From Thermodesulfobacteriota bacterium (GTDB lineage Bacteria > Desulfobacterota_D > UBA1144 > Nemesobacterales > UBA2774), in the NCBI GenBank assembly GCA_021604765.1, contig BQJP01000001.1, positions 262,226 to 326,225 of the forward strand: a stretch of 64,000 nt of DNA, given 5' to 3'. Position numbers and translations under genes: made by a program. The notes below the pieces were generated by a model. The model worked only from the letters and a program-made list of their open reading frames with translations. It was not told the origin of the DNA and made no database searches. Below, in pieces: positions 7,411-54,344 of the stretch (the stretch's first letter is position 1; each line of letters begins with the position of its first letter).

Positions 7411-7480
7411 AGGGCGGCGGCGCACATATAAGCAGGATAGACATCCTCCTTACCTCCTTTACACGCGCCGGCGCCCTTTT
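7411..7480 (+). terminator. GC-rich inverted repeat (GGGCGGCGGCGC ... GCGCCGGCGCCC) followed by TTTTAT.
   Basis: Read directly from the sequence. The loop is unusually long, about 40 nt. Confidence 0.4.
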
Positions 7481-7488
7481 ATAAAATT

Positions 7489-8082
7489 ATGAATTTAGCA
7501 TGCCTGCAAAAATTTTCAAGTGATTTTGTTGTTAGTCTCATGCCCGAGGCAAACAAGGTCTATATAAAGCAGTATTGGCCCGTAGTCTATATGGCGCTGG
7601 ACGAATTAGGGCTCGATTATGAAGAGATGCTGCTTATGGCGCTTGGCACAATTGCGGCTGAGACCGGAAATTTCAATATCGCACTTAGAGAGTACGTGTC
7701 GCAGTATAACACCTCTGCAAATGGCAGGATGATGAACCATTACTTTGACCTCTACGATTACAGGCATGATCTGGGTAATATGGGAACTCCCGATGGTGAG
7801 AGGTACCGAGGCGGTGGGGCGATTCAGCTCACAGGTAGATACAACTTTCGAGAAGTCGGTAGGAAATTAAAGATCCCGCTTGAGGATAATCCTGATCTTA
7901 TAGAGAATCCGATAGTTTCAGCCAGGGCATTGGCGACATTTCTGCACAGCAAGGAAAATGATATAAGAGAAGCATTAGGCAGGGGTGATTTAAGAAAGGC
8001 AAGAAGGCTTGTTAACGGTGGCTCGCATGGGCTTGACCGTTTCGAGGGCACTTTCAGGAGGGGGGAGAGATTGATTGCATAG
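7489..8082 (+). CDS. Endolysin, GH19 / COG3179 lysozyme-chitinase-like.
   Basis: The motif GGGAIQLTGRYNF resembles the GH19 catalytic segment GRGPIQL..NYNY. It lies in the phage late region ahead of the holin and spanin genes. Confidence 0.55.
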   Translation: MNLACLQKFSSDFVVSLMPEANKVYIKQYWPVVYMALDELGLDYEEMLLMALGTIAAETGNFNIALREYVSQYNTSANGRMMNHYFDLYDYRHDLGNMGTPDGERYRGGGAIQLTGRYNFREVGRKLKIPLEDNPDLIENPIVSARALATFLHSKENDIREALGRGDLRKARRLVNGGSHGLDRFEGTFRRGERLIA

Positions 8083-8284
8083 GATAACAAATACCAAAGT
8101 AATAAATAACCAGTACAACAAGACTGTTTACACGGCTATTGCGGGAGCGGGTCTGACTATAATATTTGTCGCGCTTAAGGATTATGGGGTTGATGTATCG
8201 ACCGAGCTTCAAGGCGCGATAACCACTTTTACTATGATGCTGACTACTCTTTTCGTTAAGAATAGAAACACGGCTTCTGCTTGA
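8075..8284 (+). CDS. Holin-like small membrane protein with a TTG start overlapping the endolysin 3' end.
   Basis: 69 aa with a single TM helix (VYTAIAGAGLTIIFVAL). Position within the lysis cassette. Confidence 0.3.
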   Translation: MHRITNTKVINNQYNKTVYTAIAGAGLTIIFVALKDYGVDVSTELQGAITTFTMMLTTLFVKNRNTASA

Positions 8285-8354
8285 TTCTATAGGACTATGT
8301 AACTACTTTTCCTGGATGAAAAGTAGCAAAAATCACTGACATAACTCAAATTTA

Positions 8355-8478
8355 GCTAAAAATAAATTTTCTCACTAAAATGATTTAATTCCACCACAAC
8401 CCTAAATCATTTTTTAACGCTCAACAATTTATTTTCTTAACGCTATTTGAGCAAATGTCAGAAAAAAATAAAAGCAAA
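8355..8478 (+). promoter_or_regulatory. Copy B of the repeated nested-dyad intergenic element.
   Basis: About 85% identical to 1618..1739. It lies upstream of the gene starting at 8525. Confidence 0.55.
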
Positions 8479-8524
8479 TCAAAATTAAATGTGAGCGGGT
8501 TGTATCTGCCCGCAAGGGGGAGTT

Positions 8525-8851
8525 ATGTGGAAGGAACTATTTAGAATAGCGCCTGAGCTGATACCGATAATCATTCAGACTGTGATGGATCTGGAGCAGG
8601 TGGTTACAGGCATAAAGAGGGGTGAGATAAGAAAGTCGCGCGTGATGAATATTATCTCAAACATTTTAGATACAAAGGACTATTTTCTAAAACAAGATTC
8701 CGACGGGCAGATGGAGATACTAAATCTTGTCTCTATGTTTGTCGATGTGATTGTCTCGACATTTAACTACACTGGGCTTTTTGCTTCTAGTGAGAAATTA
8801 GATTTTACACCGATTCCGGTTGAACAGGGGGCTAGCAATGAGGGCAACTAA
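8525..8851 (+). CDS. Hypothetical phage protein.
   Basis: ORF with an RBS GGGGGAG, within the phage late region. Confidence 0.4.
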   Translation: MWKELFRIAPELIPIIIQTVMDLEQVVTGIKRGEIRKSRVMNIISNILDTKDYFLKQDSDGQMEILNLVSMFVDVIVSTFNYTGLFASSEKLDFTPIPVEQGASNEGN

Positions 8852-9302
8852 ACTTCTATTCATAATAAGCTTGTTAATAATGGCATCCTGTGTTGGGAAG
8901 GATCTCACTCCGGCGACTGAGGTCGTATATCAGGGCGAGTTGATAGGGAATGAAGATTTTACTTATGCTTCTGCTGCTAAGGTCGTGGAAAAATGTCTCG
9001 AAGTTAAATCCTGCATGGAACTTGGTCAAGAAGATTATCCGTTGCCTAAGATTAGAGGCATGCGCGGGGGGAATGCTGTAGAGTGTGGATCTAATGATGA
9101 TGGTACGCCTAAGCTTAAACTCGGCTGTTACACGACAGATGGTTATATAACAGTTCCACAAGGCGCAGATCTCGAAATAATCTCACACGAATGCGTGCAT
9201 CATTGGTTGTACAAAAGCACAGGAGACGCAGATCCGCTTCATAGCTCAAATTATTTCCTCTCATGCTCAGGTGGACTGAGTTTGACTGAGGATTCCGAAT
9301 AA
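8838..9302 (+). CDS. Lipoprotein carrying an HExxH motif (HECVH). Start revised from the track's TTG at 8820 to the ATG at 8838.
   Basis: Signal peptide with lipobox LIMASC. An HExxH zinc-peptidase-like motif is present. RBS GGGGG. Confidence 0.35.
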   Translation: MRATKLLFIISLLIMASCVGKDLTPATEVVYQGELIGNEDFTYASAAKVVEKCLEVKSCMELGQEDYPLPKIRGMRGGNAVECGSNDDGTPKLKLGCYTTDGYITVPQGADLEIISHECVHHWLYKSTGDADPLHSSNYFLSCSGGLSLTEDSE

Positions 9303-10191: not shown

Positions 10192-11400
10192 TTAATTCTG
10201 AACTATTACAATATTGCCTTCTGTATCCACATAACCCAGATCGCCCGTTATAAACCATCCATGCTGTAGTTTCTCTGAAGTAGTATTCTTGTTATTCCAA
10301 TATCCGGGAGTCACCATCTGACCCGCTACACATATCTCTCCAACTTCGCCCACCGAAACATTTCTACCATCTGCACCTATAATCCTTATATTTACTCCCG
10401 GCAAAGCTTTTCCAATTGAGCTTGTTCCCCCGCTGTTGAGCTCTCTATTTATAGTGAGCCAAATTGCCTCTGTCATGCCGTAGCCAAGTTGTATTATCAG
10501 GCCGGAATGATCATAAAACTTTTTTTGGAGTTCTGTAGAGATCGATTTCCCTCCGGTATAGATTCCTCTTAAAGTGGCGAATGTGTCTTTCTCCGTCATT
10601 CCTGAGTCGAGTATTTTCTCATAAACTCCGATGTGTGTAATCATCAGTGTAGGGCGTTCGTTTACAAGAGCGGGGATGGTATCCTCAACTCTATACCCCT
10701 CGTGCACAAAAATTGTCGCGCCATAGTTTAGCCCTGTGAATGTCTCAAGAAATCCGCTTATATTTATCTGTGGGTCAAGGACGAGTATCCTGTCATTTTC
10801 AGTAACATTTTCTAAAGCCGCTGAAGTGGATTCAAATATTCCAGTCATTGACGAGTAAGTGTGTGTGATTCCGTTAAACCCTCCATTTGCAGAAGGGGTG
10901 TAGAAAACCACAGCAGGATCATTCTCACTCACTTGCGTTTCATTGTATTCCCCAGCAGGTCCAAGCAGTGAGTAGAAATTATTGTAACCCTCTCTTGGTA
11001 CAACTCCGTTTACATATACAGTCTGTACTGAAGTTTTTTTGAGATCTATTTCTTCAAGCAAGCTAAGCTTGTCGAGTTCTATAATGAGACACTTTGCCCC
11101 TGATTCAATCAGAATATTTCTGAGCTCTCCCGCACCCAGTCTTCTACTTAAGGGCATTGCCACAGCTCCGGATTTAAAACAGGCCAGATAAGTAACCATA
11201 AGGTCAAACCCGTTAGGCATCATAAACGCAATGGGCTCACCCTTTAGTTCCATGGCGGTAAACCAAGTGGACATATGGCGTGACATAAGCTCGAGGTCTC
11301 CGTAAGTAAAAGACTCTTCTTTAAACTTAAGCGCAATGGTGTCCAGGTTTCTCTCTAATGTGAAATCTCTAATGTTTTCTATTCTGTTTGAGTCGCTCAT
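10192..11400 (-). pseudogene. AMP-dependent synthetase/ligase (adenylate-forming) truncated after the TGD motif, with a degenerate P-loop.
   Basis: Motifs GYGMTE, GEICV.G..V..GYW and WFITGDLG are present. The ORF stops about 20 aa later. The C-terminal subdomain of roughly 100 aa is missing. The stop sits 8 bp from the phage block. Confidence 0.45.
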
Positions 11401-11450
11401 AAGGACGTAATCTTAACAGGGAATCCACTCTATTCAAAGGTGGTTTGGTT

Positions 11451-11873
11451 CTATGGAAGGATAATGTCGCAAGTGAAATCAAAGGGACCTGAACCGTTTA
11501 GGTTTGCAAATCCGATAAATGAATTACCTGGTAGAATTTCCGATGTGGAAAGTATTGCCTCTCCAACAACTTCTCCTGTATCAGATAAAAGATCACAGTC
11601 GAGATTAGTGCAGCGGTCTATTCTGCTACAGTCCTCGCCGTTAATTATTGAAAAGTCTATCGGTGGCAAAGGGCCTCCCATCTGCTGAGTGAACTCACAT
11701 TCAAACGAGTTGCATACTGCTTTTATTGCATCATTTGGACATCCAGCAAAGGCAAGCATGAAGTTATTTACGTTTGTAATCTCAGTACATTGATTGTTGC
11801 CCCCGCTGTCACAAGCTGTGAGGCTAAGAAGAAAGAATATCGGAATGATTAAAACTAAGAGCTTGTTCTTCAT
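11451..11873 (-). CDS. Cys-rich lipoprotein, hypothetical.
   Basis: Signal peptide with lipobox LTAC. Confidence 0.4.
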   Translation of the reverse strand: MKNKLLVLIIPIFFLLSLTACDSGGNNQCTEITNVNNFMLAFAGCPNDAIKAVCNSFECEFTQQMGGPLPPIDFSIINGEDCSRIDRCTNLDCDLLSDTGEVVGEAILSTSEILPGNSFIGFANLNGSGPFDFTCDIILP

Positions 11874-11956
11874 AATGCAATTGTCTCTGATTTTTTAGGT
11901 GGTTTCTACAAAAATTTAATTATAATAATAAATTCACAATAGAGCGCTTGGCGGTA

Positions 11957-16510: not shown

Positions 16511-17398
16511 TTAAGCAGCAACTTGCCTTCTTCTCATAACCATAAATCCAACTACTCCAAGAACACCAGCCATTGCAATCAAACCCCATTCAGATAGGGT
16601 TGGAACTGGTGAAGGTCCGCACGTGTCGAGCCACGCTAGACCGTCAATTTGTTCACCGTCAGCATTATTGGGGCCTATCAGCGTAGATGCGCCTGTATTT
16701 ACATTTAAGCTATACAATTCAATGCTGTTGTTTGCATAGAGAATTTCGTTTCGCTCGTCGTATGCTAAGCCCATGTTGTTTCCGGGTTCTGAGACGCCTG
16801 TGGCGCCAACTAAGCTTGTGTCCCCGGTGGTGGTGGAAATCGTATATAAATTTCCTTCTACATTCAGACCATACAAAATCTCATTTGCATCGTCATATGC
16901 TAATCCGGCGAACTCAAGACCTGAACCTACACCTATTGTCTGAGTATTCCCATTAGGGAACTGCACTGTGAGTATGCTTTCGTTATCTTCATCAGTGGAA
17001 TATAAAATGTTTTCTCCACAGTCGTCAGATGCCAGCCCCCACCAGTTGCTCGATCCGTTCTGATCGCCCAGAAATGTAATAACACCATTTGTTGCTATGG
17101 AACCTATGGTAAATTCATCCGGTATAGGGCTTCCAGGATAATCTTCGAGATCAACGCCGTAAAGAGTTCCCTCTATGTAAGATAGCCCTACTATGCTCGT
17201 CTCTCCATCGGTTGTTACAAATGGTGTTGCCTGGCCGGTGTTGGGACTAATAGTGTACAATACGCCGACATCTGCACTTGAGAGTCCGATCAACCCTTGA
17301 GGGAATCCCTGGGCATTTACTGCGCCTGCTGTTAAGAATAGAGCCAGCATTAACACTAAATTAATTCTGGCAAATAGATATACCAATCTGTTTTGCAT
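16511..17398 (-). CDS. Secreted repeat protein (beta-propeller-like) carrying a C-terminal IPTL-CTERM sorting domain.
   Basis: Signal peptide present. The C-terminus is VPTLSEWGLIAMAGVLGVVGFMVMRRRQVAA. RBS GGAGGA. Confidence 0.6.
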   Translation of the reverse strand: MQNRLVYLFARINLVLMLALFLTAGAVNAQGFPQGLIGLSSADVGVLYTISPNTGQATPFVTTDGETSIVGLSYIEGTLYGVDLEDYPGSPIPDEFTIGSIATNGVITFLGDQNGSSNWWGLASDDCGENILYSTDEDNESILTVQFPNGNTQTIGVGSGLEFAGLAYDDANEILYGLNVEGNLYTISTTTGDTSLVGATGVSEPGNNMGLAYDERNEILYANNSIELYSLNVNTGASTLIGPNNADGEQIDGLAWLDTCGPSPVPTLSEWGLIAMAGVLGVVGFMVMRRRQVAA

Positions 17399-17438
17399 AT
17401 CATCCTCCGAGATATTTGGTTTTCTTTTCTGTTTTTAT

Positions 17439-18143
17439 TTAAGCAGCAACTTGCCTTCTTCTAACAACCATAAATCCAACTATTCCAAGAACACCAGCCA
17501 TTGCGATCAAACCCCATTCAGATAGGGTAGGGACTTCTGTAGGTGCAATTTCAGCCATATAAACAATTCTTTCATAAGACATGGCGTCGGGACCACTATT
17601 TAAGTCACCTTCATTATTTCCAATACTTCCACACCTGTATCCGCCAACATCTCCCTGCAAGTGCCAGCACAACCTTTCGTTGTTTGCACCACTGGAATCA
17701 ACATCGCAATTGTTTTTTTCAACACTGTCTCCAGCTCTTACAAATCCCCATGCAGCTCCCTCTTCATCTCCCATGAGACCGTCATTATTAAAATACCAGC
17801 CCACACCGTTGGCTATGTGGGTAAAATCGTTGTTGTCATTACCCGTATTGAAAGTAACGTCACTTCTTTCACCCTGTGCGAGGAGCATAATTGTCTGACT
17901 TCCAACTGGTTTGCAGGCTAGCATCAATCGCTCTCCTGGGCAATTGGCGAGCACTTCATCAGCATTCATGAATATATTATAAGTGTCGCGGTAGCATTCA
18001 ACCCAACCGCCATTGTTTACTGTTGCTATTGGAACATTTGTCTGTGGCCCAAATGGCAGATACTGAGCTTTAGCTTCAACACTATAAAAAGATGGAATAA
18101 AAACAAGGGATAAAACTATAAAGAAATATCTAAAATTTGTCAT
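17439..18143 (-). CDS. Secreted protein with an IPTL-CTERM tail. Start revised to the ATG at 18143.
   Basis: The C-terminus is VPTLSEWGLIAMAGVLGIVGFMVVRRRQVAA. The signal peptide begins at MTNFRYFFIVLSL. RBS GGAGGA. Confidence 0.55.
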   Translation of the reverse strand: MTNFRYFFIVLSLVFIPSFYSVEAKAQYLPFGPQTNVPIATVNNGGWVECYRDTYNIFMNADEVLANCPGERLMLACKPVGSQTIMLLAQGERSDVTFNTGNDNNDFTHIANGVGWYFNNDGLMGDEEGAAWGFVRAGDSVEKNNCDVDSSGANNERLCWHLQGDVGGYRCGSIGNNEGDLNSGPDAMSYERIVYMAEIAPTEVPTLSEWGLIAMAGVLGIVGFMVVRRRQVAA

Positions 18144-18332
18144 TTTATCATCCTCCATAGACGTATGCCAATTTATATAGATAGTAGTTGATATAACAAT
18201 TTGAGTCAAGGACTAAGTCGGTATTGTTAAGGTAAATCTTTAACTGTCTCACTTGTAGTTATGTAGAGACTACTTTGGAAATTGGGTCAAGAATCATTAT
18301 TATTTAAAAATATATAATGAATCAGGGAGGGA

Positions 18333-19170: not shown

Positions 19171-19626
19171 CTACACTTTCTCTCTAGTTATTGTGCTAAA
19201 GGCAAATTCAATTGTTTCAATTACCATCTCGTTACTTTTTGCTTTGAATGGCGCTGCTTCAAATTTAATCGGCCAGGCATTGGACAATTTCCACCTCATT
19301 GCTGGTTCATGTTCTTGGTTAAGAAGGGTTACGGTTATATCAGTGGTCTTAATAGGTTCGGATAAATCGTTGAGGAATACATTATTAATCCATTCAATTA
19401 TCTTTGGATCGCTTATTATGCCTCTCTTTAGCACAAGGTTGGAGTGTTTAGTTGATATGGGCAGTTTATGAGCATAACTGTTCTCGCCTCCCTCCCGATA
19501 TTCTACAACATCACTTTCACTGTTGAGACCAGTGACCTCTTGAAAGCTGGAGTTGTTGTTTTGAACTCCGTCAAGTCCAAATTCAGCCTTAAAATAAAAC
19601 GCTGCTGGGGGATAATTGTTCGCCAT
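19171..19626 (-). CDS. Contractile tail tube protein homolog (T4 gp19 / eCIS Afp1-Pvc1 type, PF06841-like), orphan.
   Basis: FQEVTGLNSESDVVEYREGGEN..HKLPISTKHSNLVLKRGI..IIEWI matches the remembered tube-protein signature. 151 aa. RBS AAGGGAG. Confidence 0.55.
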   Translation of the reverse strand: MANNYPPAAFYFKAEFGLDGVQNNNSSFQEVTGLNSESDVVEYREGGENSYAHKLPISTKHSNLVLKRGIISDPKIIEWINNVFLNDLSEPIKTTDITVTLLNQEHEPAMRWKLSNAWPIKFEAAPFKAKSNEMVIETIEFAFSTITREKV

Positions 19627-37782: not shown

Positions 37783-38790
37783 TCAGTTTTCTTCAGGTGT
37801 ACTCCATTGCATATTGGAAAAGTTAAGTGTCAAAGATGACGCATTTGTCAGATCCTCTATCGTAGAGAGTGCAGCTGGCTGTCTGCGGATTATCTCACCA
37901 GTACTTGTATTTGATTCAAACCACAAAAGCACTTCTTGTGTGGGTGTCATAGTATTTGATTGTCCACTATTTAACGGAATATCTTCAAAGTAGATTGATG
38001 TAATTGCTTGTGAGGATCCTACTAAAGTGAGCTGTTGAGCCAACGCTGCATATATGAGTTCTTCTGAATTGTTGACGAATCCTATTGAGTCAGGATTGTT
38101 TCCTGCCACAGGTTTTTCCAATATTTCATTCTTACCTAAAACTACGTCCTGACCCAGTGCAATATTTACTACATTGGTCTCAATATCAACTTCTGTTGTT
38201 TCCATCTCCCCTAGGTCTTCAGCTCCAAACACTTGGAACACTGGAGACCATTGGAATTCCATTAGTTGAGTGAGATTTTGTGTCGAGACGGATCGCCAGA
38301 TCACATTAAATGCTCCATTTACTTTTATCGCGATGTTCAGGTTTAACGACTTACTCATAACATATTCTAGGTCCTCAGGCAGTATCATTATTGAGATTGT
38401 TTTCACATCGTTGTTAGAGTTGATGGTCGAGCTTGCGTCAACTACGGTCTGCTGATACGGGACAAGCCCTCCGTGGGAAGGGCATTCTGCTCCCTGTTCT
38501 GCAGCATTAGCTTCTGCTCTCATAAAACGCTGTTCAAAATTCTCATGACAGTGCGCAATATCATCATCTGAGACATCTACCATATTGCGGTTCGCGTTCC
38601 TCTCTGCTCTAAGTAAACAGTTCACGTATTTGCCAGATGCCTTTAGCTTGCTGTTGTAGCACTGTGTGACTGCTCTGGCATCAGGCAGCATTCTTTGAGC
38701 ACTTGCGTTTGTAGAATAAAGCAGATTAAACGCTATTGCTGATAAGAAGAGTAAAACAGCGCAATACAAAAAAGTTTTGTTGTTCATCAT
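37783..38790 (-). CDS. Secreted hypothetical protein. Start revised to the MMNNK ATG at 38790.
   Basis: Signal peptide; RBS GAGGGGG. Confidence 0.4.
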   Translation of the reverse strand: MMNNKTFLYCAVLLFLSAIAFNLLYSTNASAQRMLPDARAVTQCYNSKLKASGKYVNCLLRAERNANRNMVDVSDDDIAHCHENFEQRFMRAEANAAEQGAECPSHGGLVPYQQTVVDASSTINSNNDVKTISIMILPEDLEYVMSKSLNLNIAIKVNGAFNVIWRSVSTQNLTQLMEFQWSPVFQVFGAEDLGEMETTEVDIETNVVNIALGQDVVLGKNEILEKPVAGNNPDSIGFVNNSEELIYAALAQQLTLVGSSQAITSIYFEDIPLNSGQSNTMTPTQEVLLWFESNTSTGEIIRRQPAALSTIEDLTNASSLTLNFSNMQWSTPEEN

Positions 38791-38896
38791 ATCCCCCTCT
38801 ATAAATATATTCATAAAAACTATAACCAAAATTTGTCTGTTTTGTGAAATGGGTTGTGCTCTATTCCAAAGAGTTCTTAAATGATGCCAGTGAGAT

Positions 38897-39958
38897 TTAG
38901 AGAATAAACGATCCTACTAAAATTATTACGAATAGAATAATAAAAGCCCCTCTGCACCAATAGTCCAATGTTTTAGCCTCTTTTTCTTTATCCCGGCCTA
39001 CAAGCCTGGCAACTATAGAGGTCTCTACCAGAACCGCAAACACCAAGAACATCGATCCGAACAAAAAGTAATCCATGTGGGTCAGATAGGATATCTTGGG
39101 CAGCAAGTTCCCCAGCAGAAAACGATAGGCTATTAATGTGAGTATTGCCGTAATTGCGATGCTGAATTTGGGTCCGATATGTGAAGGGTCAATAAATAGT
39201 ACGATTAAAGATATAAACACTATCATAATAAGTGGAACGAGGACTTTAATGAAATAAAACCCAACCAGCCTCTCTGCCTCAAACTGGAATACAACACCTG
39301 GCAAAGGGGGCAGTTTTGGTCCGACAATCATGGGCTCCGTAAATGTGTCCCAGCCTGTTATATCCCAATCTGTAACTGTCAGCACCTCGCTCATACCTGA
39401 TTTTTCTTCATTAATGCTGAATTTGATGTGTTGAGCATCTTTTCCTACAGTTACTATTTTGATCTGGAGAAAATGCTTATCAGTTGGGAAATCTTCAAGA
39501 TTCATTGGATACGACATGGTACCCCAGTAACGCTGCACGTAAGATACTGTGCCGTCGGGAAGAACTTGCACCTGGTCGGGAAATGTCTCAAAAAGTTTTT
39601 GCTGATTTAATATCTGTAAGTACGGAGTCCATATGTCCTCTGTTTTCATGATTCGAATATGGTCAATATCTGCTGCAAGACGAGGGTCTTTCCACTCTGC
39701 AATAAGTGCAAAGTTGGCGACAAATGATTGTTGCGCTCCATCTATGCCGTCAATGTCAATTACTATGATGCCGACCTTAATGGGTAGAGCGGTGTCTTGA
39801 TTCCCAGGGCGTACTTCTGCCAAATATTGCTCTTGTAGTTCTTCCTGTGCGTAAGGAGTATCTGCTGCTGAGATCATTAAAAGAAATAAGCAGCATAAAC
39901 TTAATAATATCTTTGAATAATTTTTATAAATTTTCATATTCAATAAACTCTCTGGCAA
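38897..39958 (-). CDS. Prokaryotic pentameric ligand-gated ion channel (Cys-loop receptor family homolog).
   Basis: AEWKDPRL (the W.D..L motif) and IWTPYLQILNQ (the iW.Pd..l.N motif) are present, plus C-terminal TM helices. Paralog of 47410..48447. Confidence 0.65.
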   Translation of the reverse strand: MPESLLNMKIYKNYSKILLSLCCLFLLMISAADTPYAQEELQEQYLAEVRPGNQDTALPIKVGIIVIDIDGIDGAQQSFVANFALIAEWKDPRLAADIDHIRIMKTEDIWTPYLQILNQQKLFETFPDQVQVLPDGTVSYVQRYWGTMSYPMNLEDFPTDKHFLQIKIVTVGKDAQHIKFSINEEKSGMSEVLTVTDWDITGWDTFTEPMIVGPKLPPLPGVVFQFEAERLVGFYFIKVLVPLIMIVFISLIVLFIDPSHIGPKFSIAITAILTLIAYRFLLGNLLPKISYLTHMDYFLFGSMFLVFAVLVETSIVARLVGRDKEKEAKTLDYWCRGAFIILFVIILVGSFIL

Positions 39959-43125: not shown

Positions 43126-44076
43126 TTAAGCTATAACTTCCCTTCTTCTCATAACCATAAATCCAACTATGCCCAAAATACTTGCCATGGCTATTAGTCC
43201 CCATTCAGATAGTGTAGGGATTTCGCTTGGGTCCGGCGTAAAGGCAATCGCGTCCATGCCCAGCTCTGTCGGACCTATAACCGTCACTACGCCAGTGTTA
43301 ATGTCTAATGTCCCTATGAAGTTTTGTCTGGGAACCATAATTGTCCCGCCGCCACTTGTAATAGATAGATACAACACCCCTGTGGACTGGTCAAAATCCA
43401 TAGCGTTTGCCCTAGGAAGATCGTCGTCTGTAAGAGTTGGGTATGTGGGGTTTGATATGACATTGACATCCCCTGTGAGCTGATTAACCGTGTATAGAAC
43501 ATTAGTGCCCGGAGTATTGAAGTCCCCCACTAAATAATAGAGAGTATCCGTTGGAGAAAATGCCGCGGCATTACCACCCCCCGGCACTTGATTAATAATT
43601 GCTATCAGGGTGCTCAGACCCGTTTGGGTATTAATAGTAGTTAACCAGTTTTGAACCAAGCCCATGGTCTCGGTGCAGGGGCCCACAGGATCAAAGTTGA
43701 AACCAGTGGCAAAAAGTGTGTTATCACTGTTACGAAAAGACATGTCTGTCCAAGCTTCGCAATTATCGGTTGGTCCTATTTCTGTTCCCGCGCCTGAAAT
43801 AGTATTGATCTCGACAAGCACCGTAATGTCGGATCCGTCAGCCCTTTCACATATGGCAAACAAACGCCCTTGTGCATTAAAATCCATACTGCCGCAGCGC
43901 TCAAAACCAATTGGCCCCACAGCATTAGCAGCTCCAGTCTGTGTATTAATTATATGTAATGTGCTTAAGCCATCCCGCCCGATATGTGATATACCGTAAA
44001 GTGTCTGAGCCTGTACAGTGACACCCATCAAAACTAATGCAACTAAAGAAATAAAAGCATATTTAACCATTTTCAT
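43126..44076 (-). CDS. Secreted beta-propeller-like protein with an IPTL-CTERM tail. Start revised to 44076.
   Basis: The C-terminus is IPTLSEWGLIAMASILGIVGFMVMRRREVIA. RBS AAGGAG. Confidence 0.55.
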   Translation of the reverse strand: MKMVKYAFISLVALVLMGVTVQAQTLYGISHIGRDGLSTLHIINTQTGAANAVGPIGFERCGSMDFNAQGRLFAICERADGSDITVLVEINTISGAGTEIGPTDNCEAWTDMSFRNSDNTLFATGFNFDPVGPCTETMGLVQNWLTTINTQTGLSTLIAIINQVPGGGNAAAFSPTDTLYYLVGDFNTPGTNVLYTVNQLTGDVNVISNPTYPTLTDDDLPRANAMDFDQSTGVLYLSITSGGGTIMVPRQNFIGTLDINTGVVTVIGPTELGMDAIAFTPDPSEIPTLSEWGLIAMASILGIVGFMVMRRREVIA

Positions 44077-44289
44077 CTTACATACTCCTTTAACTTTCAT
44101 ATGTACACATTAGCTAATATAATTTAATCACAGTTAAAAATTTAAATCAAGAATTTATTGACCGGATGTCTGTATTTACCGCTATATTCTTCCAGTAAAG
44201 AAGGGGTAAAAATGCGTGGTTTTGTGATCCAATCGTAAGTGTAATGTGCTCTTGTTTAATAAGTGTAATTATTAACTCTGCTGGAATTG

Positions 44290-44330
44290 AAAAAGGGAGC
44301 CGGCGTAACTAGAGCCAGACTCCCTTTCAT
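44290..44330. terminator. GGGAGCC...CTCCC hairpin flanked by an A-run and a T-run.
   Basis: Downstream of 44357..44887. Confidence 0.4.
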
Positions 44331-44356
44331 AATTTTATTTGAAATGTTTTTAGTTT

Positions 44357-44887
44357 TTACGCAGTTACTTTCCTTCTTCTCATAGCCATAAATCCAACTA
44401 TCCCAAGAACTGCAGCCATGGCAATTAGTCCCCACTCAGATAGGGTAGGGACATTGCGTGGTGTAATGCTGTTTTTGAAAGTACAAATACCACTGGTATT
44501 TGGTTCAAGGCAATCCATAAATACACTGGCTTCTTCCTCATTAATTTGTAAAATGAGATTATTCGGATTCCCCTGGGTTATTTCGCAGACTATTTCATCC
44601 AGTTCCCAGCCATCAGGTACTGTTTCCATAAACGTAATTCCGGGCTCTTCAACTATAAAACCGAATACTACTCCACTGCCGTTCGGTATTTCGAAGATAC
44701 CACAACTTTCTCCTCCTTCGAATGTACAAGTAAAATCGAATAGAGTACCATCGTCGGGTATGGCCTCTTTTGTAAATTCTACAAAACAAAAAGGTTGAGC
44801 ATGAGATTTCGTTCCAACCACTAAAGAACCTAAACCAGCTAATATCATAAAAATAATAAGAGTTATTAAACATCGTGTATATTTCAT
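44357..44887 (-). CDS. Secreted Cys-containing protein with an IPTL-CTERM tail. Start revised to 44887.
   Basis: The C-terminus is VPTLSEWGLIAMAAVLGIVGFMAMRRRKVTA. RBS GGAGGAG. Confidence 0.55.
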   Translation of the reverse strand: MKYTRCLITLIIFMILAGLGSLVVGTKSHAQPFCFVEFTKEAIPDDGTLFDFTCTFEGGESCGIFEIPNGSGVVFGFIVEEPGITFMETVPDGWELDEIVCEITQGNPNNLILQINEEEASVFMDCLEPNTSGICTFKNSITPRNVPTLSEWGLIAMAAVLGIVGFMAMRRRKVTA

Positions 44888-45038
44888 TCTTCTCCTCCAA
44901 AGAAGCACCTTGATAAGCGGACACAAAGATAATAAACACTTAATATAGAAACTATTGACACACACTCCCTCGTGAATTTAGTACTTATATATATGGTGAA
45001 AAAAAGACTAACACAGTTTCAGATATAAATTCAATAGG

Positions 45039-45410
45039 CTATAAATGAACATTTGTTTGAAAAGATTTAGGTGTACAAAATGTTAAGGGAATTACAAAAG
45101 AAACTCCGAAAGCGCAGCGTTTGCCTTCAAAATCTCCAACAAATTTACATACACTTAGATCGTCGTCGTTAGGTTTTTGCACTATTTCATGAACGAGTAA
45201 ATGTTTCCCCGTCTCAAGCACTTTTAGATCATCCGCTCTAAGTGTCTCAGCGCTGTCTTTCCAAGGAAGCTCGGCGTCCTTCTTCCCAACTATCTCTTCC
45301 TCCGCCATACCCCTTAGTGCGTCATTAACCCAAAGATATGTTCCTTCCGCATCCTTTACCCAAAAGAAAAAGGGCATTTCGTTAAATACTTCAAGTTCTT
45401 TACTAGTCAT
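45039..45410 (-). CDS. Small PAS-like domain protein; paralog of 31921..32280.
   Basis: Shares the FNEMPFFFWVKDAEGTYLWVND motif with its paralog. Confidence 0.35.
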   Translation of the reverse strand: MTSKELEVFNEMPFFFWVKDAEGTYLWVNDALRGMAEEEIVGKKDAELPWKDSAETLRADDLKVLETGKHLLVHEIVQKPNDDDLSVCKFVGDFEGKRCAFGVSFVIPLTFCTPKSFQTNVHL

Positions 45411-45523: not shown

Positions 45524-45949
45524 GTGAGGGAAATGAGAATAAATTCAAAACTGTTATTAATTCTACCTTTATTATTAGTACTGGCGCTTGCCGCTTGTGA
45601 TAGCAGTACCAATAGCAACGCTCAGGATACTGACACTGACAGCGCGTGCCCGTGCTTTAGCGCCCAGGATATAATGAATGAAGCAATGGGAAAAGACTTC
45701 TTTGGTTGTACTGTTATACCTTCGGGATTCTCAGTTTCACTAGACTTGTCTGAGGGAGAGACTGAGTTTACTATCGCCGTGTCTTGCGAGAGCGGAAGTT
45801 TCAGTTCCTGCCAATGTGTCGATGGTGTTAGCGGCGTTGCAAGCAGCGTTACTGAGGAGCAATACTTTGATTGTACTAATATAGTGGTCGAAGCTATTAC
45901 AACTGAGTTTGAGCAGGAGAGCATGGGTATGTGTCTGATTGCGAACTAG
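45524..45949 (+). CDS. Cys-rich lipoprotein, hypothetical.
   Basis: Lipobox LAAC; RBS GGTGAGGG. Confidence 0.4.
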   Translation: MREMRINSKLLLILPLLLVLALAACDSSTNSNAQDTDTDSACPCFSAQDIMNEAMGKDFFGCTVIPSGFSVSLDLSEGETEFTIAVSCESGSFSSCQCVDGVSGVASSVTEEQYFDCTNIVVEAITTEFEQESMGMCLIAN

Positions 45950-45973: not shown

Positions 45974-47341
45974 ATGGAATTCAAAGAGATAATGGCAGGT
46001 GTCTGGAGCGATGTTCAAGAACTTATGCCGGAGCACGTGGAGAGGCTCTCATGGACAAAGGATCAGGTAAGGGAGCACCAGACAAAGAAATTCAGAGAAC
46101 TACTCAAAACAGCTAAAGAGAAAACGAAATATTACAGTGAATTACTAGCCGATGTTGATATAGATAATTTCACACTTGAAGATCTGCACATACTCCCACC
46201 AAATGACAAAACGTTTCATATGGACAGATGGGACGATTTTGTGGCAGCTCCTGGCATAACGTATGAGGTTGTTGAAAATCACCTCGAAAAGCTAAGAAAG
46301 GGTGAGATAGATGATCCTTTTTATAATGATGAATATCTATTTGTTTCCACTGGTGGCTCAACAGGCAAAAGGGGTGTGTTTCTCTGGGATATGGAGTTCA
46401 TTTGCCAGATAATCTGCTACACTTACCGCTACATCCTTCATGACGAGATAAAAAACTCCTATGAAGGGCCTTTCAAACTGGCCACGGTTGAGGCCCCCAC
46501 GCTTCTACACGGAAGCCCATATGTATTTCCAAGTAAATTTGTAGCCGACATGGATCTTCTTAGTCTTGCTTCAACCGATCCTATTCCCGAAGTGTGTGAG
46601 AAGTTAAATGAATATCAACCGACTCACCTGATGGCATATGCTTCATCTGTAGGAGAATTAGCTGCTGCTCAACTTAAAGGAATGTTGGACATCCATCCTC
46701 GTTGGGTGTGCACCAATTCTGGCCCTCAGGATGAGGATATTCGGAACCGTACCATTAAGGCATGGGGAGTAAAAGCAAGCAATTCCTGGGGCTGTTGTGA
46801 GATAGGGCAGATGGCTATAGAAACGGAGTTTAGCCCTGGGATGGTTATATGCGCAGACGGTGCGATATTTGAGGTAGTAGATAAAAACAACCAGCCAGTG
46901 GATAATGTAGAAGACGCGGCCAAAGTACTAGCGACTAATTTAACCAACTTCTCTATGCCAATGATTCGCTATGAAGTTGATGATATTGTTGAGATTGGAG
47001 CGCCACTGCCTGAATATCCAGCGTACGGCACCGTTAAGCGGATTCTAGGAAAAGCTACTTTCTGGTTCCAGTATGGAGATATTAAAGTTCATCCGACTTC
47101 TTACAGTGATATATTAGAGGTAGAGAAAGAGGTTGAGGAATTTCAGATTGTCCAGACTGAAGAGGGTGCCCATATAAAGCTTGTCTGCAATGGCGAGCCT
47201 AATATTGCAGAGATGAAAGACACTATCTTAAAAAATCTAAATAAATACGGTTTGCATGATCCAATAATTAACTTCGAAGTAGTAGATTCCCTGCCTCGCC
47301 ACCCCGAAACAGGCAAAATCAAGCGCTTTATCCCACTTTAG
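45974..47341 (+). CDS. Adenylate-forming enzyme of the phenylacetate-CoA ligase / CapK / CoF390-synthetase type (PaaK-like).
   Basis: P-loop-like STGGSTGKRG. Size is about 455 aa. The family call is tentative. Confidence 0.4.
   Translation: MEFKEIMAGVWSDVQELMPEHVERLSWTKDQVREHQTKKFRELLKTAKEKTKYYSELLADVDIDNFTLEDLHILPPNDKTFHMDRWDDFVAAPGITYEVVENHLEKLRKGEIDDPFYNDEYLFVSTGGSTGKRGVFLWDMEFICQIICYTYRYILHDEIKNSYEGPFKLATVEAPTLLHGSPYVFPSKFVADMDLLSLASTDPIPEVCEKLNEYQPTHLMAYASSVGELAAAQLKGMLDIHPRWVCTNSGPQDEDIRNRTIKAWGVKASNSWGCCEIGQMAIETEFSPGMVICADGAIFEVVDKNNQPVDNVEDAAKVLATNLTNFSMPMIRYEVDDIVEIGAPLPEYPAYGTVKRILGKATFWFQYGDIKVHPTSYSDILEVEKEVEEFQIVQTEEGAHIKLVCNGEPNIAEMKDTILKNLNKYGLHDPIINFEVVDSLPRHPETGKIKRFIPL
47285..47338 (+). 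repeat. Left copy of a 54-bp direct repeat, the functional 3' end of the PaaK-like gene.
   Basis: 89% identical to 48506..48559. Confidence 0.7.
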
Positions 47342-47409
47342 ACAACTCATTGTCAGGGGGGGAAGGTTGATTGACATACAAATCTATATTTGTTAGTGTC
47401 TAAATTCTA

Positions 47410-48447
47410 ATGTTTAGAATACTTTTGATCCGAATCTCATTAGCTTTTCTATGCTTTTTCCTATTCTCTCCTATCATCACACATGCGTATGAGCCGAAAC
47501 CCACGAGTGTTATAAAAAGTGGTAATACTGGGGGAAAACCGAAACAGGTTCAAGTTGGAATATACGTGATAAACATTGAAGAGGTGAACAGTGCGAAACA
47601 AAGTTATCAAGCAACAATTGCCTTAGATATGAAATGGAACGACCCCACTCTGATATGCGGTCCGTCGGAAGATAAAGGCATAATCCGTAAGTTTAACCTT
47701 AAAGATATTTGGAACCCGAGCATGATTATAGCCAATCAGGAGCATATTGAAAAACAGTTCACGTATCAAGCCTGGGTAGATTGTTTAGGCAATGTAGAAT
47801 ACACGGAGATTGTGTTCGGCGACTTTTTGACAATTGCAAATATTAAGGAATTTCCATTTGACCAGCGCCCTTTGACAATTGAATTAGTTTCTACGGAATT
47901 CGATACCAGTGAATTGCAATTTGTTAATGACAAATCGATCACTGGGCGTGATTCAGATCTCTCCGTTGCAGACTGGTATATTGATAAAGTACCCGTTGCC
48001 GAGTCGACGGCTTATCATTTCAAACCCGGAAATCGTGAGCTTTCATCGTTTGTTTATACACTCTCAGCTAAACGTAATTCTAGTTTCTTTGTGTGGAAGA
48101 TAATTATCCCGCTTATTCTGATTGTAATAATGTCGTGGGCAGTATTCTGGATTCCCCCGAGTCAGTTAGGGCCTCAAATCGGCTTATCTATGACCTCGAT
48201 GCTCACACTGATTGCTTATCGTTTTGCCATAGGGCATGTCGTACCTGACGTTTCCTACCTTACCCGCTTTGACAAATTTGTATTTGGTTCCACATTGCTG
48301 GTATTTCTGGCTTTTGCAGAGGCCATAGTAAGTGGGTCTCTAAGTTACGAGAATAATGATAAGCTGGCTAAAACAATAGACTTTTATTCACGCTTTATAT
48401 TTCCGGCAATATTCATATGTATATTGATCTATTCGTTGTTTCTATAA
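47410..48447 (+). CDS. Prokaryotic pentameric ligand-gated ion channel; second paralog.
   Basis: KWNDPTL and IWNPSMIIANQ motifs. C-terminal TM helices. A candidate promoter TTGACA-N17-TAGTGT lies upstream. Confidence 0.65.
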   Translation: MFRILLIRISLAFLCFFLFSPIITHAYEPKPTSVIKSGNTGGKPKQVQVGIYVINIEEVNSAKQSYQATIALDMKWNDPTLICGPSEDKGIIRKFNLKDIWNPSMIIANQEHIEKQFTYQAWVDCLGNVEYTEIVFGDFLTIANIKEFPFDQRPLTIELVSTEFDTSELQFVNDKSITGRDSDLSVADWYIDKVPVAESTAYHFKPGNRELSSFVYTLSAKRNSSFFVWKIIIPLILIVIMSWAVFWIPPSQLGPQIGLSMTSMLTLIAYRFAIGHVVPDVSYLTRFDKFVFGSTLLVFLAFAEAIVSGSLSYENNDKLAKTIDFYSRFIFPAIFICILIYSLFL

Positions 48448-48505
48448 TCCAGCTCAGCTCTGAAATGATAATTTTCTAGTACCGGAGGCGATACAAAAAG
48501 TCGCA

Positions 48506-48559
48506 GATTCTCTGCCTCCTCACCCCGAAACAGGGAAAATAAAACGCTTTATCCCACTT
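48506..48559 (+). repeat. Right copy of the 54-bp direct repeat, a decayed remnant of the PaaK-like 3' end.
   Basis: It encodes ..SLPPHPETGKIKRFIPL, compared with the gene end SLPRHPETGKIKRFIPL. Confidence 0.7.
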
Positions 48560-48608
48560 AATAAATAAATTTAAGTATCATATCTAACCTATTGTTAATT
48601 AAGTAGAA

Positions 48609-49115
48609 TTAATATAGCCAACTTCTGTATTCAGAGTTGTTATCCTTCATTTCTTCATAGAGCCAGACCATGCGGTCGAGGAACCATGTTTTTCCAAGAA
48701 AAACGAGCACAATTCCAAAGATGGTAGGCCAAATTGCGAGCACAATCAACCCATAGACGCATATGATAGCTCCGATTGAAGATACAGCTGTGAGAAAGTT
48801 GATAATCTTATAATGATGGCTGGGAACTGGGATATTTTTTCTATTTAGCCAAACCCTCTCACCAAGCACTGCTTTAGAAGTCCAGCTCTGTGTAGTTTTA
48901 GGCTTCTTAAAAATCCTCGGGTTTATATAGACCCAGACTAAGGCAGCTGCAACGGGCAAAACAGCCCACCATCCTATCCACACGCGGCACCATACAGCTA
49001 ATGCCAGAAGGGGCATTGTAGAATAACGCGTCCAGACGCTCCAGGGGTTGGCATGGCGTGCCCATACCTCATCTGTCATCTTAAAAAATTTAGCTATCGA
49101 TTTCTCAAGCGTCAT
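48609..49115 (-). CDS. Hypothetical membrane protein with 4-5 TM helices.
   Basis: Hydrophobic helices. Confidence 0.35.
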   Translation of the reverse strand: MTLEKSIAKFFKMTDEVWARHANPWSVWTRYSTMPLLALAVWCRVWIGWWAVLPVAAALVWVYINPRIFKKPKTTQSWTSKAVLGERVWLNRKNIPVPSHHYKIINFLTAVSSIGAIICVYGLIVLAIWPTIFGIVLVFLGKTWFLDRMVWLYEEMKDNNSEYRSWLY

Positions 49116-50488: not shown

Positions 50489-51568
50489 TTATATCTCTAA
50501 TTTAGCCTGACGACGTCTTAAGAAAACAACTGCGACACCAAGTAACATTACTACAGTAGCAATGAGCCCATACTCCGAAAGTGTTGGAACTTCCGCAACA
50601 AGCTGTTCACCCCTAACTACCAGGGCGGCAAATTGATTCGTCTCATCAGCTATGAATCCAATAACATCAATATCACCGTTGAACTGGTCTATTGTTACAA
50701 GGAAATTACCGTTTTCTATGCCGTTGGTAGTTGCTTCAGGTCCTATCCCATTACCTAAATGAGCTAGGACAGCGAAGAAGTCACCTATGCCATCAAAGTC
50801 TTTGGACCCTATAATATTATCCCCTATAATAAATTCGGGTGGGTATATGAGATTGTCTATGAATGTAGCGTTTCCGGTGGTTTGGTTTAGGATGTTGATT
50901 GCTCCGGGGGTGTTTCGATTGTCTGTGCACTGAAAAAGGGTGTCCATACCGTTAAAACCAATTGCGCTCCATGTATCGTCAGATCCTGTCGGCCCGAGAA
51001 CTGTCAAATTACCGGTTTGGGTATTAATAATGGCCAGTGAGTTTGCGGATACTGTATTGGTAGTGTTCTCAGCTTCCAATGCGTTACCCTCACCATTTAA
51101 ATGAGCGAAGAGAGTACCGTCGGATCTGAATGAAATATCAGAGACAAAATCTCCTCGTCCTAATTCCAGTGATCCTATTTCAGTCGCTTGTCCAGTATTT
51201 GGGTCTAATATTAACAAATATGAGTTGAATAACCCATTTCGTGTAAGCAGTATTGGATCTACGCCGTTTTCTTCGATTTTCTCACATACCGCGAAAAATT
51301 CTCCTGTATCAGGATGTATGTCCAGACCCGTACATCTGGTATAACCGTTTATAGTTCCTATTTCAGTTGGGGTGCCTGTATTAAGATTAATCGAATACAA
51401 TACTGAATCTAAAAATGGTGATAACCGTGGTTCGACTACTTCTTCTGGCGGCAGTTCCTTTATTTGAGATTCAGTGCCAATACCATATATTTTCAGCTGT
51501 GCCATTGCCGGTAATGCCGATACAACAAATAAAGTTAAGACTAAAAATAATCTTACTAAACTTTTCAT
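50489..51568 (-). CDS. Secreted beta-propeller-like protein with a variant IPTL-CTERM tail. Start revised to 51568.
   Basis: The C-terminus is VPTLSEYGLIATVVMLLGVAVVFLRRRQAKLEI. RBS GGAGGG. Confidence 0.5.
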   Translation of the reverse strand: MKSLVRLFLVLTLFVVSALPAMAQLKIYGIGTESQIKELPPEEVVEPRLSPFLDSVLYSINLNTGTPTEIGTINGYTRCTGLDIHPDTGEFFAVCEKIEENGVDPILLTRNGLFNSYLLILDPNTGQATEIGSLELGRGDFVSDISFRSDGTLFAHLNGEGNALEAENTTNTVSANSLAIINTQTGNLTVLGPTGSDDTWSAIGFNGMDTLFQCTDNRNTPGAINILNQTTGNATFIDNLIYPPEFIIGDNIIGSKDFDGIGDFFAVLAHLGNGIGPEATTNGIENGNFLVTIDQFNGDIDVIGFIADETNQFAALVVRGEQLVAEVPTLSEYGLIATVVMLLGVAVVFLRRRQAKLEI

Positions 51569-51835
51569 ATATCCCTCCAAAAAAATGTTGTTTAATTTTA
51601 CAAACGTTTGTTTTTTGTGTTTCTAAAGATTGTTTTAATTTCGATTCAGTTAGAAGGGTTGAGACTAAAGACTAACGTTGCAAGGTTACTACTCTTTATC
51701 TCTGACCGCCATCTTCTTATCTAAGTTCGATATTATCATATCGAAAATGAGAATGCAATAAATATGTATATGTCTATATTGCAATATGCATCTTGGGAAT
51801 TGATTTGTTCTTGAACGGCCTAACAAGGGATTTGT

Positions 51836-53420: not shown

Positions 53421-54344
53421 TTAAGCTGATAGTTTTTTCCTTCTGATGACTAGTAAGCCTGCAATTCCCAATATTGCCGCAAGGGTTATGAGTCCCCATT
53501 GTGAAATGGTCGGTATTGGATTGGGCAAAGGAGGGGCAAAAGGTCCCGGGTTGGCAGAACAGGAAAACCCATCGATTGATGCTGTAAGCCCCTCAGGCAG
53601 CGTCTTGCCGATTGATGTTGCCTCTCCAGTTTGAGTGTTTAGTTGGTAGAAGATTCCCTCACCTGTTCTGTCAGAACCATAAACATTTCCACGTGCATCA
53701 GCGTACATAGAGCCAAAAACTCCATTTGCCTCAAGTCCGGTAAGCCCTCTTTCTTCAAATGTGCCGGTTTCGATATCTATAGCTATTAGGGTTTGAGCAG
53801 GTACCTGAGATGCTCCAATATTTTGAGTGACTGCATAGAACAATCCATCTACAGGATTGTATGCAATATCTGATATACCAAAATTTGATCCAGCTATATT
53901 TATGGAGTTTACAACTTCTACTGTGTCAACATCTATAGCATGTATAATATTAAATACATTACTAGTGCCTCCAGCATTTACATATAATAAGTCGTCCCCG
54001 CCAAAATCTCCGACAGGATAAAGAGGCACGCTTGAAAGGCCTGCTATCGTTCCAAGCTCTTCAACACTACCGTTTGCAGATACTCGTACTAGTTGTAAAT
54101 CATCTCTTGTAAATGTCACACCGTAAGCGAAATTGTCTTTTTGTCTATATCCAGTCGCATTGATACGTCTTCCTGCATTGTTTGGTTCTATTTCAAATAT
54201 ATTTCTCTCTATATCATATTTGAGCAGTTGTCCTTCAGAGCTAAAGACTTGATAAAAAAGTCTGCTGCATTCAAAGGGCCGTTGTCCAAAAGCGTTTGTA
54301 GATAGAGTTGCAAAAATGGCAAAGAGTATGATTTTTAATAACAT
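53421..54344 (-). CDS. Secreted beta-propeller-like protein with an IPTL-CTERM-like tail.
   Basis: The C-terminus is IPTISQWGLITLAAILGIAGLLVIRRKKLSA. RBS GGAGGGG. Confidence 0.5.
   Translation of the reverse strand: MLLKIILFAIFATLSTNAFGQRPFECSRLFYQVFSSEGQLLKYDIERNIFEIEPNNAGRRINATGYRQKDNFAYGVTFTRDDLQLVRVSANGSVEELGTIAGLSSVPLYPVGDFGGDDLLYVNAGGTSNVFNIIHAIDVDTVEVVNSINIAGSNFGISDIAYNPVDGLFYAVTQNIGASQVPAQTLIAIDIETGTFEERGLTGLEANGVFGSMYADARGNVYGSDRTGEGIFYQLNTQTGEATSIGKTLPEGLTASIDGFSCSANPGPFAPPLPNPIPTISQWGLITLAAILGIAGLLVIRRKKLSA

Follow-up and report, generated by a model that had tools for sequence, protein, structure and literature searches.

A pentameric ligand-gated ion channel gene inserted at the 3′ end of a PaaK-like gene in a Thermodesulfobacteriota bacterium: empty sites, gene-end relics, and exchange between lineages

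The window studied here is a 64-kb stretch (64,000 nt) of contig BQJP01000001.1 in the assembly GCA_021604765.1 of an uncultured marine Thermodesulfobacteriota bacterium. It carries a gene for a pentameric ligand-gated ion channel (pLGIC) that was inserted at the 3′ end of a gene for a PaaK-like adenylate-forming enzyme (PaaK hereafter). The insertion provided PaaK with a new terminus and left the native terminus behind the channel gene as a relic. Related loci contained the matching empty sites, the native form of the right flank, and mirror-image arrangements in which a relic of the PaaK 5′ end precedes the channel gene, and comparison between lineages showed that the inserted module is younger than its flanks. 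Our preferred explanation, in which we place roughly even confidence, is that the channel gene and its promoter region (about 1.1–1.2 kb together) form a strain-variable accessory module that has no mobility genes of its own and is gained or replaced through recombination anchored in PaaK. We infer the mechanism of this recombination and the direction of transfer from the arrangement of the sequences. The features of the locus are as follows.

45974–47341, plus strand: PaaK-like adenylate-forming enzyme gene, 455 aa, the anchor gene (open reading frame (ORF) and weak PaaK/F390-type matches)
47277–47338, plus strand: repeat copy 1, the final 62 nt of the PaaK-like gene and still functional
47339–47341, plus strand: TAG stop codon immediately 3′ of PaaK codon L455
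47342–47409, plus strand: upstream part of the channel module, 68 nt, putative promoter
47410–48447, plus strand: pLGIC gene, 345 aa, GLIC-like (Pfam and GLIC alignment)
48448–48497, plus strand: 50-nt spacer from the channel stop codon to repeat copy 2
48498–48559, plus strand: repeat copy 2, left over from the resident PaaK 3′ end and non-coding (profile E 3e-19)
48560–48608, plus strand: native tail and intergenic flank, AAT AAA TAA and then ..TTTAAGTATCATAT.TAAC..
48609–49115, minus strand: DUF6653 gene, the conserved downstream neighbor of PaaK in empty-site loci and the right edge of the insertion
45524–45949: lipoprotein-like ORF, 141 aa (ORF list)
45039–45410, minus strand: PAS-domain gene (ORF list)

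Pairwise comparison of the two repeat copies (47277–47338 and 48498–48559) revealed identity at 54 of 62 bases. An earlier reading of this DNA, made from the sequence only, had reported a 54-bp direct repeat with 6 mismatches; reading the letters directly gave exactly 6 mismatches in this 54-nt core, and the actual repeat is slightly longer. That reading had also proposed a search for further copies. Only the two copies were found in the 64-kb window, and none of 100 shuffles gave a match. The 455-aa ORF genuinely ends in copy 1, which reads ..DSLPRHPETGKIKRFIPL before the stop codon. Copy 2 reads ..VADSLPPHPETGKIKRFIPLNK before its stop codon, but its frame lacks a start codon and does not stay open 5′ of 48464, indicating that copy 2 is a non-coding relic. 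The triplets AAT AAA TAA at 48560 are the relic of the last two PaaK codons and the stop codon, and a profile of the PaaK 3′ end, made from 17 loci, matched copy 2 together with 23 nt of its flank (E 3e-19). The window PaaK now ends in ..PL-TAG, as in other occupied loci, and the native ..PLNK-TAA survives only in copy 2. The proposed insertion with replacement of the gene terminus is thus supported. The channel gene is the only gene between the copies, as had been claimed, and is accompanied there by the TAG stop codon, the 68-nt upstream region, and the 50-nt spacer.

About 35 related loci of Dadabacteria/Thermodesulfobacteriota (designated by L numbers) were compared with the window. They were gathered by searches of genomes and metagenomes with the PaaK-like protein as the query, a search of a protein collection with the channel as the query, and retrieval of contigs, and the proteins of the window were mapped onto all of them. 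All comparison sequences are contigs of metagenome-assembled genomes (MAGs) or metagenomes. One of them, L001 from the Logan assembly of DRR328265, was 100% identical to the window over 46765–48666 with both repeats included; it is an independent assembly but possibly from the same sample as the window. Most of the related loci had no channel gene next to PaaK. Both flanks were visible in nine loci of this type (L003, L006, L007, L008, L009, L010, L011, L012/13, and L014/15) and only the downstream side in L005 and L016. In those belonging to the clades of the window, PaaK ends in ..CTT-(A/G/C)A(T/G)-AAA-TAA and is followed by ..CTTTAAGTA.., as after copy 2; native genes of the window's clade have two further codons (N/E/Q-K) before TAA/TAG. 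The 40-nt flank 3′ of copy 2 showed 22–28 identities to most clade B/C natives (for example, L004, L006, L007, and L030) and 16–19 to a few, as against 8–9 to the flanks of copy 1 in L002 and L026, and window positions 48498–49108 were colinear with L004 positions 11304–11913. Since the native PaaK ends as copy 2 does and runs directly into the flank found from 48560 onward in the window, the loci without the channel gene are empty sites. A comparison with relatives for just such sites had been proposed from the sequence alone, and it yielded the nine loci with both flanks and the two with the downstream side.

The arrangement of the window (PaaK, channel gene, relic) was found in four lineages, namely the window, L002, L026/27, and L036. 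In 4/4 of them TAG directly follows codon L455, giving the left junction CTT–TAG, and the channel gene is followed by a relic of the PaaK 3′ end (profile E 3e-19 in the window, 7e-9 in L002, 5e-4 in L026, and 1e-4 in L036). The left ends of the relics lie at position 1, about 19, and about 40, a difference for which later decay may account, and the relics are 62, about 45, and about 20–45 nt long. L002 and L026 share one, shorter relic boundary; of the 50-nt spacer of the window, only the first 6 nt (TCCAGC) are common to these two loci. Each relic runs into the native flank of its own lineage (L026 resembles L012, L036 resembles L014, and the window resembles L007/L016). The motif CGCAGA at the left of copy 2 was considered as a derived trait of the window and L026 and was rejected, as MAFFT aligned L026 differently.

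Six other lineages (L004, L022, L028, L029, L030, and L037/38) have the opposite order, with the channel gene located between the promoter region and the ribosome-binding site of PaaK. In two of them a relic of the PaaK 5′ end precedes the channel gene, which is the mirror image of the window. L030 has a second copy of the PaaK ribosome-binding site and the first ~30 codons, about 112 nt, upstream of the module (E 1e-19), and L037/L038 has a shorter relic (E 3e-6) that ends at the same point, codon ~31–32. The duplicated PaaK 5′ end thus measures about 46–112 nt at this site. In both orders the channel gene and PaaK are adjacent and co-oriented. In the unbiased searches based on PaaK, the channel gene was present in 3 of ~16 informative loci. 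The notion that the repeat is an att site specific to the element did not hold, the repeat being the end of the neighboring gene.

The age of the module was evaluated by comparing the window with L002. The sliding identity was 55–82% (about 73%) across PaaK and 87–97% from ~47300 to 48455, and then there was none. The jump from about 73% to about 92% occurs inside copy 1, and the two sequences are near-identical from about 47313. At the protein level, the channels are 92% and the PaaK proteins 75% identical. The closest PaaK to that of the window is that of L029 (86% aa identity), whose channel is only 77% identical and lies upstream of PaaK. Nei–Gojobori synonymous divergence (dS) between the window and L002 was 0.28 for the channel gene and about 3.1, which is saturated, for PaaK, and the channel gene had the lower dS in every pair tested. 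These data show that the module is much younger than its flanks. The channel tree places the window, L002, and L026 in one clade, in which the window's channel is closer to that of L002 than L026's is, and in the PaaK tree the empty, upstream, and downstream loci are interspersed in all three clades. The window PaaK itself is a mosaic: its first ~200 nt (45974–46200) are nearest to the L002/L012 clade, with the first 75 nt being 79–84% identical to this distant clade, and 46200–47300 are nearest to L004/L029. The segment 45974–46200 thus constitutes a second recombination tract at the PaaK locus. The interspersed arrangements and the mosaic PaaK show that the locus recombines often between lineages, and an exchange of the channel module has taken place recently between lineages on either side of a deep split.

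Two observations were made on variation around the locus. L022 (840–2733) matches L004 at ~98% identity as far as ~2150, a point within the channel gene, and L030 at 100% identity from there on; it is either a chimeric contig or a recombinant of very recent origin. In the window, the surroundings of the locus encode many secreted proteins of the IPTL-CTERM-sorted kind (DUF4394/DUF6923 types) (43126–44965, 50489–51580, 53421–54344, and 16511–18209). As the number and order of these genes differ between related loci, the whole neighborhood can be regarded as a variable region.

The 345-aa ORF matched Pfam Neur_chan_LBD, the N-terminal ligand-binding beta-sandwich domain, with E 3.4e-16 (above the curated cut-off) and Neur_chan_memb, the four-helix transmembrane channel domain, with E 5.8e-11 (above the threshold). 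Residues 43–343 align to residues 14–311 of GLIC (E about 1e-26). The translation contains the loop motif ..KEFPFDQRPL.. (FPFDQ) with no flanking cysteine pair. The product of 47410–48447 is thus predicted to be a pLGIC of the prokaryotic Cys-less type. The second pLGIC paralog noticed in the sequence is present at 38897–39958 on the minus strand and is 35% identical to the inserted channel. An orthologue with 77% identity to it lies close to the PaaK locus of L030 (3046–4086, minus strand), indicating that this paralog behaves as a stable resident gene, unlike the inserted channel gene. Its neighbor, a 348-aa ORF (37783–38829), was considered as a third channel, but it is not a channel and had no family match.

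The region upstream of the channel gene (47342–47409) contains a conserved block, ..CTCATTGTCAGGGGGGGAAGGTTGATTGACA.., with a putative promoter that consists of TTGACA (47371–47376), a 17-nt spacer ending in TG, and TAGTGT (47394–47399). The 45-nt block of TTGACA, 17-nt spacer, and TAGT(G/T)T is almost invariant in eight contexts (the window, L002, L026, L036, L030, L037, L039, and L031), of which L031 and L039 are unrelated contexts. A consensus promoter scan did not call this site because its −10 element fits the consensus at only 3/6 positions. The claim that the channel gene has its own TTGACA promoter therefore stands as to the block, and its function as a promoter is plausible from the conservation. 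The −10 element lies ~10 nt from the ATG, and there is no Shine–Dalgarno sequence and no room for one. The almost invariant block together with the lack of a Shine–Dalgarno sequence suggests a near-leaderless mRNA for this channel family.

Alignment of the eight contexts showed that the module is conserved from ..(T)CATT(C/G)TC.GGGG.AGG..AATTGACA.. to a few bases 3′ of the channel stop codon. Conservation past the stop codon extends for ~28 nt in L030, L037, and L039 and comprises only TAATCC in the loci with the downstream arrangement, and the module ends vary by 10–20 nt between contexts. Two other origins of the sequence after copy 1 (TAGACAACTCATTGTCA) were considered and rejected. It is not a remnant of PaaK codons 22–30, as the PaaK 5′ profile gave no match there, and it is not the native downstream sequence of an L002-type PaaK, as the eight-context alignment places CTCATTGTCAGGGG.. 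in the module itself.

The 455-aa protein had no Pfam match at 0.01. Its NCBIfam matches to PaaK/F390-type ligases were far below the cut-offs (the best, to the DVU1553 family, scored 62 bits against a cut-off of 300), and PaaK structures matched it at E about 1e-5 over ~140 residues. The PaaK-like identity given in the sequence-only reading is thus retained in a loose sense on these sub-threshold matches: the protein appears to be related to PaaK/F390-synthetase-type enzymes and to lie outside any curated family. An exact-sequence look-up returned no match for the protein, and its orthologues in related loci are 75–86% identical in amino acid sequence. The PaaK gene of L036 (3036–4403), which lies beside a channel gene, has an in-frame stop codon between ..EISY and IAERH.. 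and is either a pseudogene or affected by a sequencing error.

Mobility functions were searched for in the window. No recombinase, integrase, or transposase domain was detected in any ORF scanned, which agrees with the earlier remark that there is no integrase, and the sole ORF of the insert is the channel gene. No tRNA or Rfam family was found near the insert. No terminal inverted repeats join the two ends of the insert, the best pairs being about 71% identical and internal. Folding of 48445–48575 on both strands gave z values of −0.6 and −1.1 with no long stem and no attC-like hairpin. The length of the duplication is neither short nor fixed, being 62 nt in the window and about 46–112 nt at the 5′ site. 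GIY-YIG genes were considered as drivers and rejected: such a gene lies downstream of PaaK in the occupied locus L002 but also in the empty locus L006, and hence it does not track the module.

Elements and islands inserted by integrases enter the 3′ ends of tRNA, tmRNA, or protein-coding genes and restore them. The present locus resembles these in its flanking direct repeats, in the new gene terminus on the side of the element, in the original terminus stranded on the far side, and in the existence of empty sites. It differs from them in that the window has no integrase inside or near the insert and that the cargo is one gene of 1.2 kb; moreover, the repeats are 87% identical rather than near-identical and vary in length between lineages, and in other loci the module occupies the opposite, 5′ end of PaaK, where that end is duplicated. 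One site-specific system does not account for relics that derive from the 3′ end in one order but from the 5′ end in the other and measure ~20–112 nt, whereas relics of either end of the same neighbor gene are predicted by one-sided anchoring in PaaK.

According to our preferred explanation of recombination anchored in PaaK, the donor DNA would have come from another Dadabacteria lineage and would have carried the PaaK 3′ end, TAG, the promoter, and the channel gene in this order. On the left side, the donor PaaK end would have paired with the resident PaaK. On the right side, the donor end would have been attached at a point 62 nt short of the resident terminus, either by an illegitimate, one-sided event facilitated by homology or by a crossover with a relic that already existed in the donor. 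As a result, PaaK would have gained a donor-type terminus (..PL and stop), and the resident terminus (..PLNK and stop, with the native flank and the DUF6653 gene) would have been stranded downstream as copy 2. Thereafter, PaaK and the relic may serve as two homology arms, so that the module could be swapped with, or precisely lost from, any genome having a PaaK orthologue; the identity pattern between the window and L002 is what allelic exchange through both arms would produce. A crossover between copies 1 and 2 would remove the module without a trace and would account for the abundance of empty sites.

A process of this type is known as homology-facilitated illegitimate recombination in the natural transformation of Acinetobacter, Pseudomonas stutzeri, and Streptococcus pneumoniae. 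Here too, one anchor (PaaK) and an illegitimate join would insert DNA and leave part of the resident gene, and such recombination would account for the relics of either gene end and for the lack of a recombinase. The sequence AAGT at the left edge of copy 2 may represent a microhomology and is a candidate for the illegitimate join. Unlike the described cases, the event here is deduced from sequence, and to our knowledge competence has not been described in Dadabacteria. More generally, as expected of an insertion anchored by homology, whether one-sided and illegitimate or of the Campbell type, the repeat copies the resident target, the outer flanks are native, and the inserted tract differs in ancestry from its flanks, as seen in the identity jump, dS, and tree incongruence. 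Marine bacteria have small flexible genomic islets that are swapped by homologous recombination between conserved flanking genes. The module resembles such islets in that its presence, absence, and position are polymorphic among close relatives, with mosaic flanks and an incongruent gene tree, and differs from them in that the insertion itself made one of the homology arms, which is no more than a short remnant of the neighbor gene.

Several points weigh against this explanation. The mechanism is reconstructed from its end products alone, and the 62-nt repeat varies too little across lineages for donor parts to be told from resident parts within copies 1 and 2. No relic-free donor with PaaK followed by the channel gene was found among the loci sampled, so that a one-sided illegitimate join is inseparable from a two-sided exchange through a pre-existing relic. 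A crossover within at most 62 nt of ~87% identity would be inefficient for RecA. The sequences are MAG or metagenome contigs throughout, and at least L022 looks chimeric or recombinant. Finally, the module is found in the unrelated contexts L031 and L039 with ends that agree within about 10–20 nt, and homology with PaaK cannot explain these sites.

The repeat might instead have arisen by duplication in situ and decay, the main rival, which we regard as a possible but doubtful origin. An ancestral array of PaaK, channel gene, and PaaK would have been formed, for example, by tandem duplication of a channel–PaaK pair; deletion of most of the right PaaK copy would give the order of the window with its 3′ relic, and deletion of most of the left copy would give the upstream order with its 5′ relic. 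Recombination between the PaaK copies would produce the empty sites, and later allelic exchange through ordinary homologous recombination the young module. One ancestral state and deletions would thus explain both mirror-image relics as well as PaaK-anchored recombination does, together with the native flanks on both sides in every lineage, the varied relic lengths, and the ease of precise loss. L002 and L026 share their relic boundary though the window's channel is nearer to that of L002 than L026's is, which suggests that the relic and the module have partly separate histories. However, two long PaaK copies were found in 0/10 occupied lineages, and the spacer before copy 2 contains no significant trace of the region around the PaaK ribosome-binding site: the similarity of 48448–48497 to PaaK upstream regions was not above that of shuffles (p 0.25–0.78). 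For the same reason, our first proposal of this kind, a circular permutation of the channel–PaaK pair by tandem duplication, was rejected and is kept only as a rival. Lateral exchange is still needed to explain a dS of 0.28 against a saturated value, and many independent losses are required on the PaaK tree. The sequence-only reading had itself named a remnant of a deleted second PaaK, in an arrangement lacking any empty site, as the scenario that would contradict it. Empty sites do exist, and the remnant as the origin of the repeat survives within this rival.

It is unlikely that the module is a true single-gene mobile cassette with defined ends, a recombinase encoded elsewhere, and an att-like sequence that targets the PaaK 3′ end. 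The unit occurs with similar ends at no fewer than four kinds of site (the PaaK 3′ end, PaaK codon ~31, L031, and L039), it carries its own promoter-like block, and the stop position CTT–TAG is identical in 4/4 downstream insertions. The ends would be semi-defined, with ..TCATTCTCCSGGGG.AGG..AATTGACA on the left and TAATCCCAAATTATGCGTTAAGAA.. on the right. The copy in L039 belongs to a series of single genes with a conserved repeat between them. A specific form of this idea, which we hold to be similarly improbable, is that the promoter–channel unit is a non-autonomous cassette moved by a trans-acting Dadabacteria system into several kinds of site with unusually long target duplications of 60–110 nt, the array in L039 being its home platform. 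The flanking repeats, however, are the ends of the target gene itself and are different ends in the two arrangements, and their lengths vary from 20 to 112 nt. Neither terminal inverted repeats nor an attC-like or other hairpin was found at the repeat or, for hairpins, in the repeat of L039, and no recombinase was found in 64 kb. The differences of 10–20 nt in the module ends are as expected of random breakpoints around a selected unit from promoter to stop codon. With regard to known systems, the single gene as the unit of gain and loss and the array of single genes with a repeat in L039 are reminiscent of integron cassettes, from which the module differs in its promoter-like block, in the lack of a folded site of the attC type and of IntI in the window, and in repeats that are coding sequence of the neighbor. 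Unlike insertion sequences, miniature inverted-repeat transposable elements (MITEs), and transposons, it has no terminal inverted repeats and no short target-site duplication of fixed length. Of the claim of a mobile single-gene cassette, the exchange of the module between lineages is borne out; there is no support for a discrete cassette that a site-specific recombinase moves in trans, nor for a self-contained or integrase-driven one.

An assembly artefact, in which two co-occurring strains were joined at a short repeat, is very improbable. The window is MAG-derived, and L022, which switches from a match to L004 (98%) to one to L030 (100%), indicates that chimeras or very recent recombinants do occur. 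However, the order and the relic recur in three further assemblies that are independent and come from different samples (L002, L026/L027, and L036), making four in all, L001 reproduces the window junctions exactly, and a strain switch cannot produce copy 2 with its native flank.

Observations were also made on channel genes and GIY-YIG genes in other loci. L039 (1–5640) contains five single genes in mixed orientation, one of which encodes a channel 66% identical to that of the window. The genes are separated by a conserved direct repeat of 50–135 nt with copies at 659, 1982, 3362, 4135, and 5358; 3/5 copies terminate in GGGCAGGTCATT, one of them directly next to the left end of the module. This repeat was not found in the window or in the other loci and contains no stable hairpin. 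The GIY-YIG genes of L002 (12907–13206) and L006 (7649–7945) are closely related to that in L035, where the N-terminal 65 residues of a GIY-YIG nuclease and the last 223 residues of a related channel are fused in one ORF (90–1040). It looks as if the GIY-YIG gene landed within the channel gene in L035.

The only phage-like genes detected as a block in the window lie ~38 kb away from the insert (50–9300, plus strand). This block includes an ORF at 2598–3362 that matches Pfam Gp80 and the PHROG 'head protein' (E 1e-46 and 2e-39, respectively), an endolysin-like ORF at 7489–8082, and a 1233-aa ORF at 3369–7070 without a match. It is probably the end of a prophage, and the part of it inside the window contains no integrase. 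A lone T4 gp19-type tail-tube gene (19171–19626, minus strand; Pfam E 8e-43) lies among IPTL-CTERM and DUF genes and may belong to a contractile injection system or be left over from a phage.

Taken together, the data support an insertion, the replacement of the gene terminus, and lateral exchange. The results point to gain, loss, and exchange of an accessory gene by host recombination at a variable islet, a process that is already known, and add evidence at the level of junctions for pLGICs. The inserted channel belongs to the same fold-level family as GLIC/ELIC-type channels, with full-length similarity to GLIC and a distribution that is patchy even among close relatives. For twenty years, frequent loss and lateral transfer of prokaryotic pLGICs have been inferred only from such sporadic distribution and from incongruent trees (Tasneem et al., PMC549065; Jaiteh et al., PMC4795631), and neither paper mentions mobile elements or junctions. 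Unlike those phyletic patterns, the present locus exposes the junctions themselves, in that an occupied site, matching empty sites, a stranded gene end, a mirror-image arrangement, and recent exchange between lineages are all visible. It suggests that the relic of a core gene left by one insertion can become a portable homology arm, through which an accessory gene is easily swapped or lost without any mobility gene. The natural variants among close relatives, with no channel gene or with the channel gene upstream or downstream of PaaK, may serve as comparators for the role of bacterial pLGICs and for a functional tie between the channel and the ligase-like gene.

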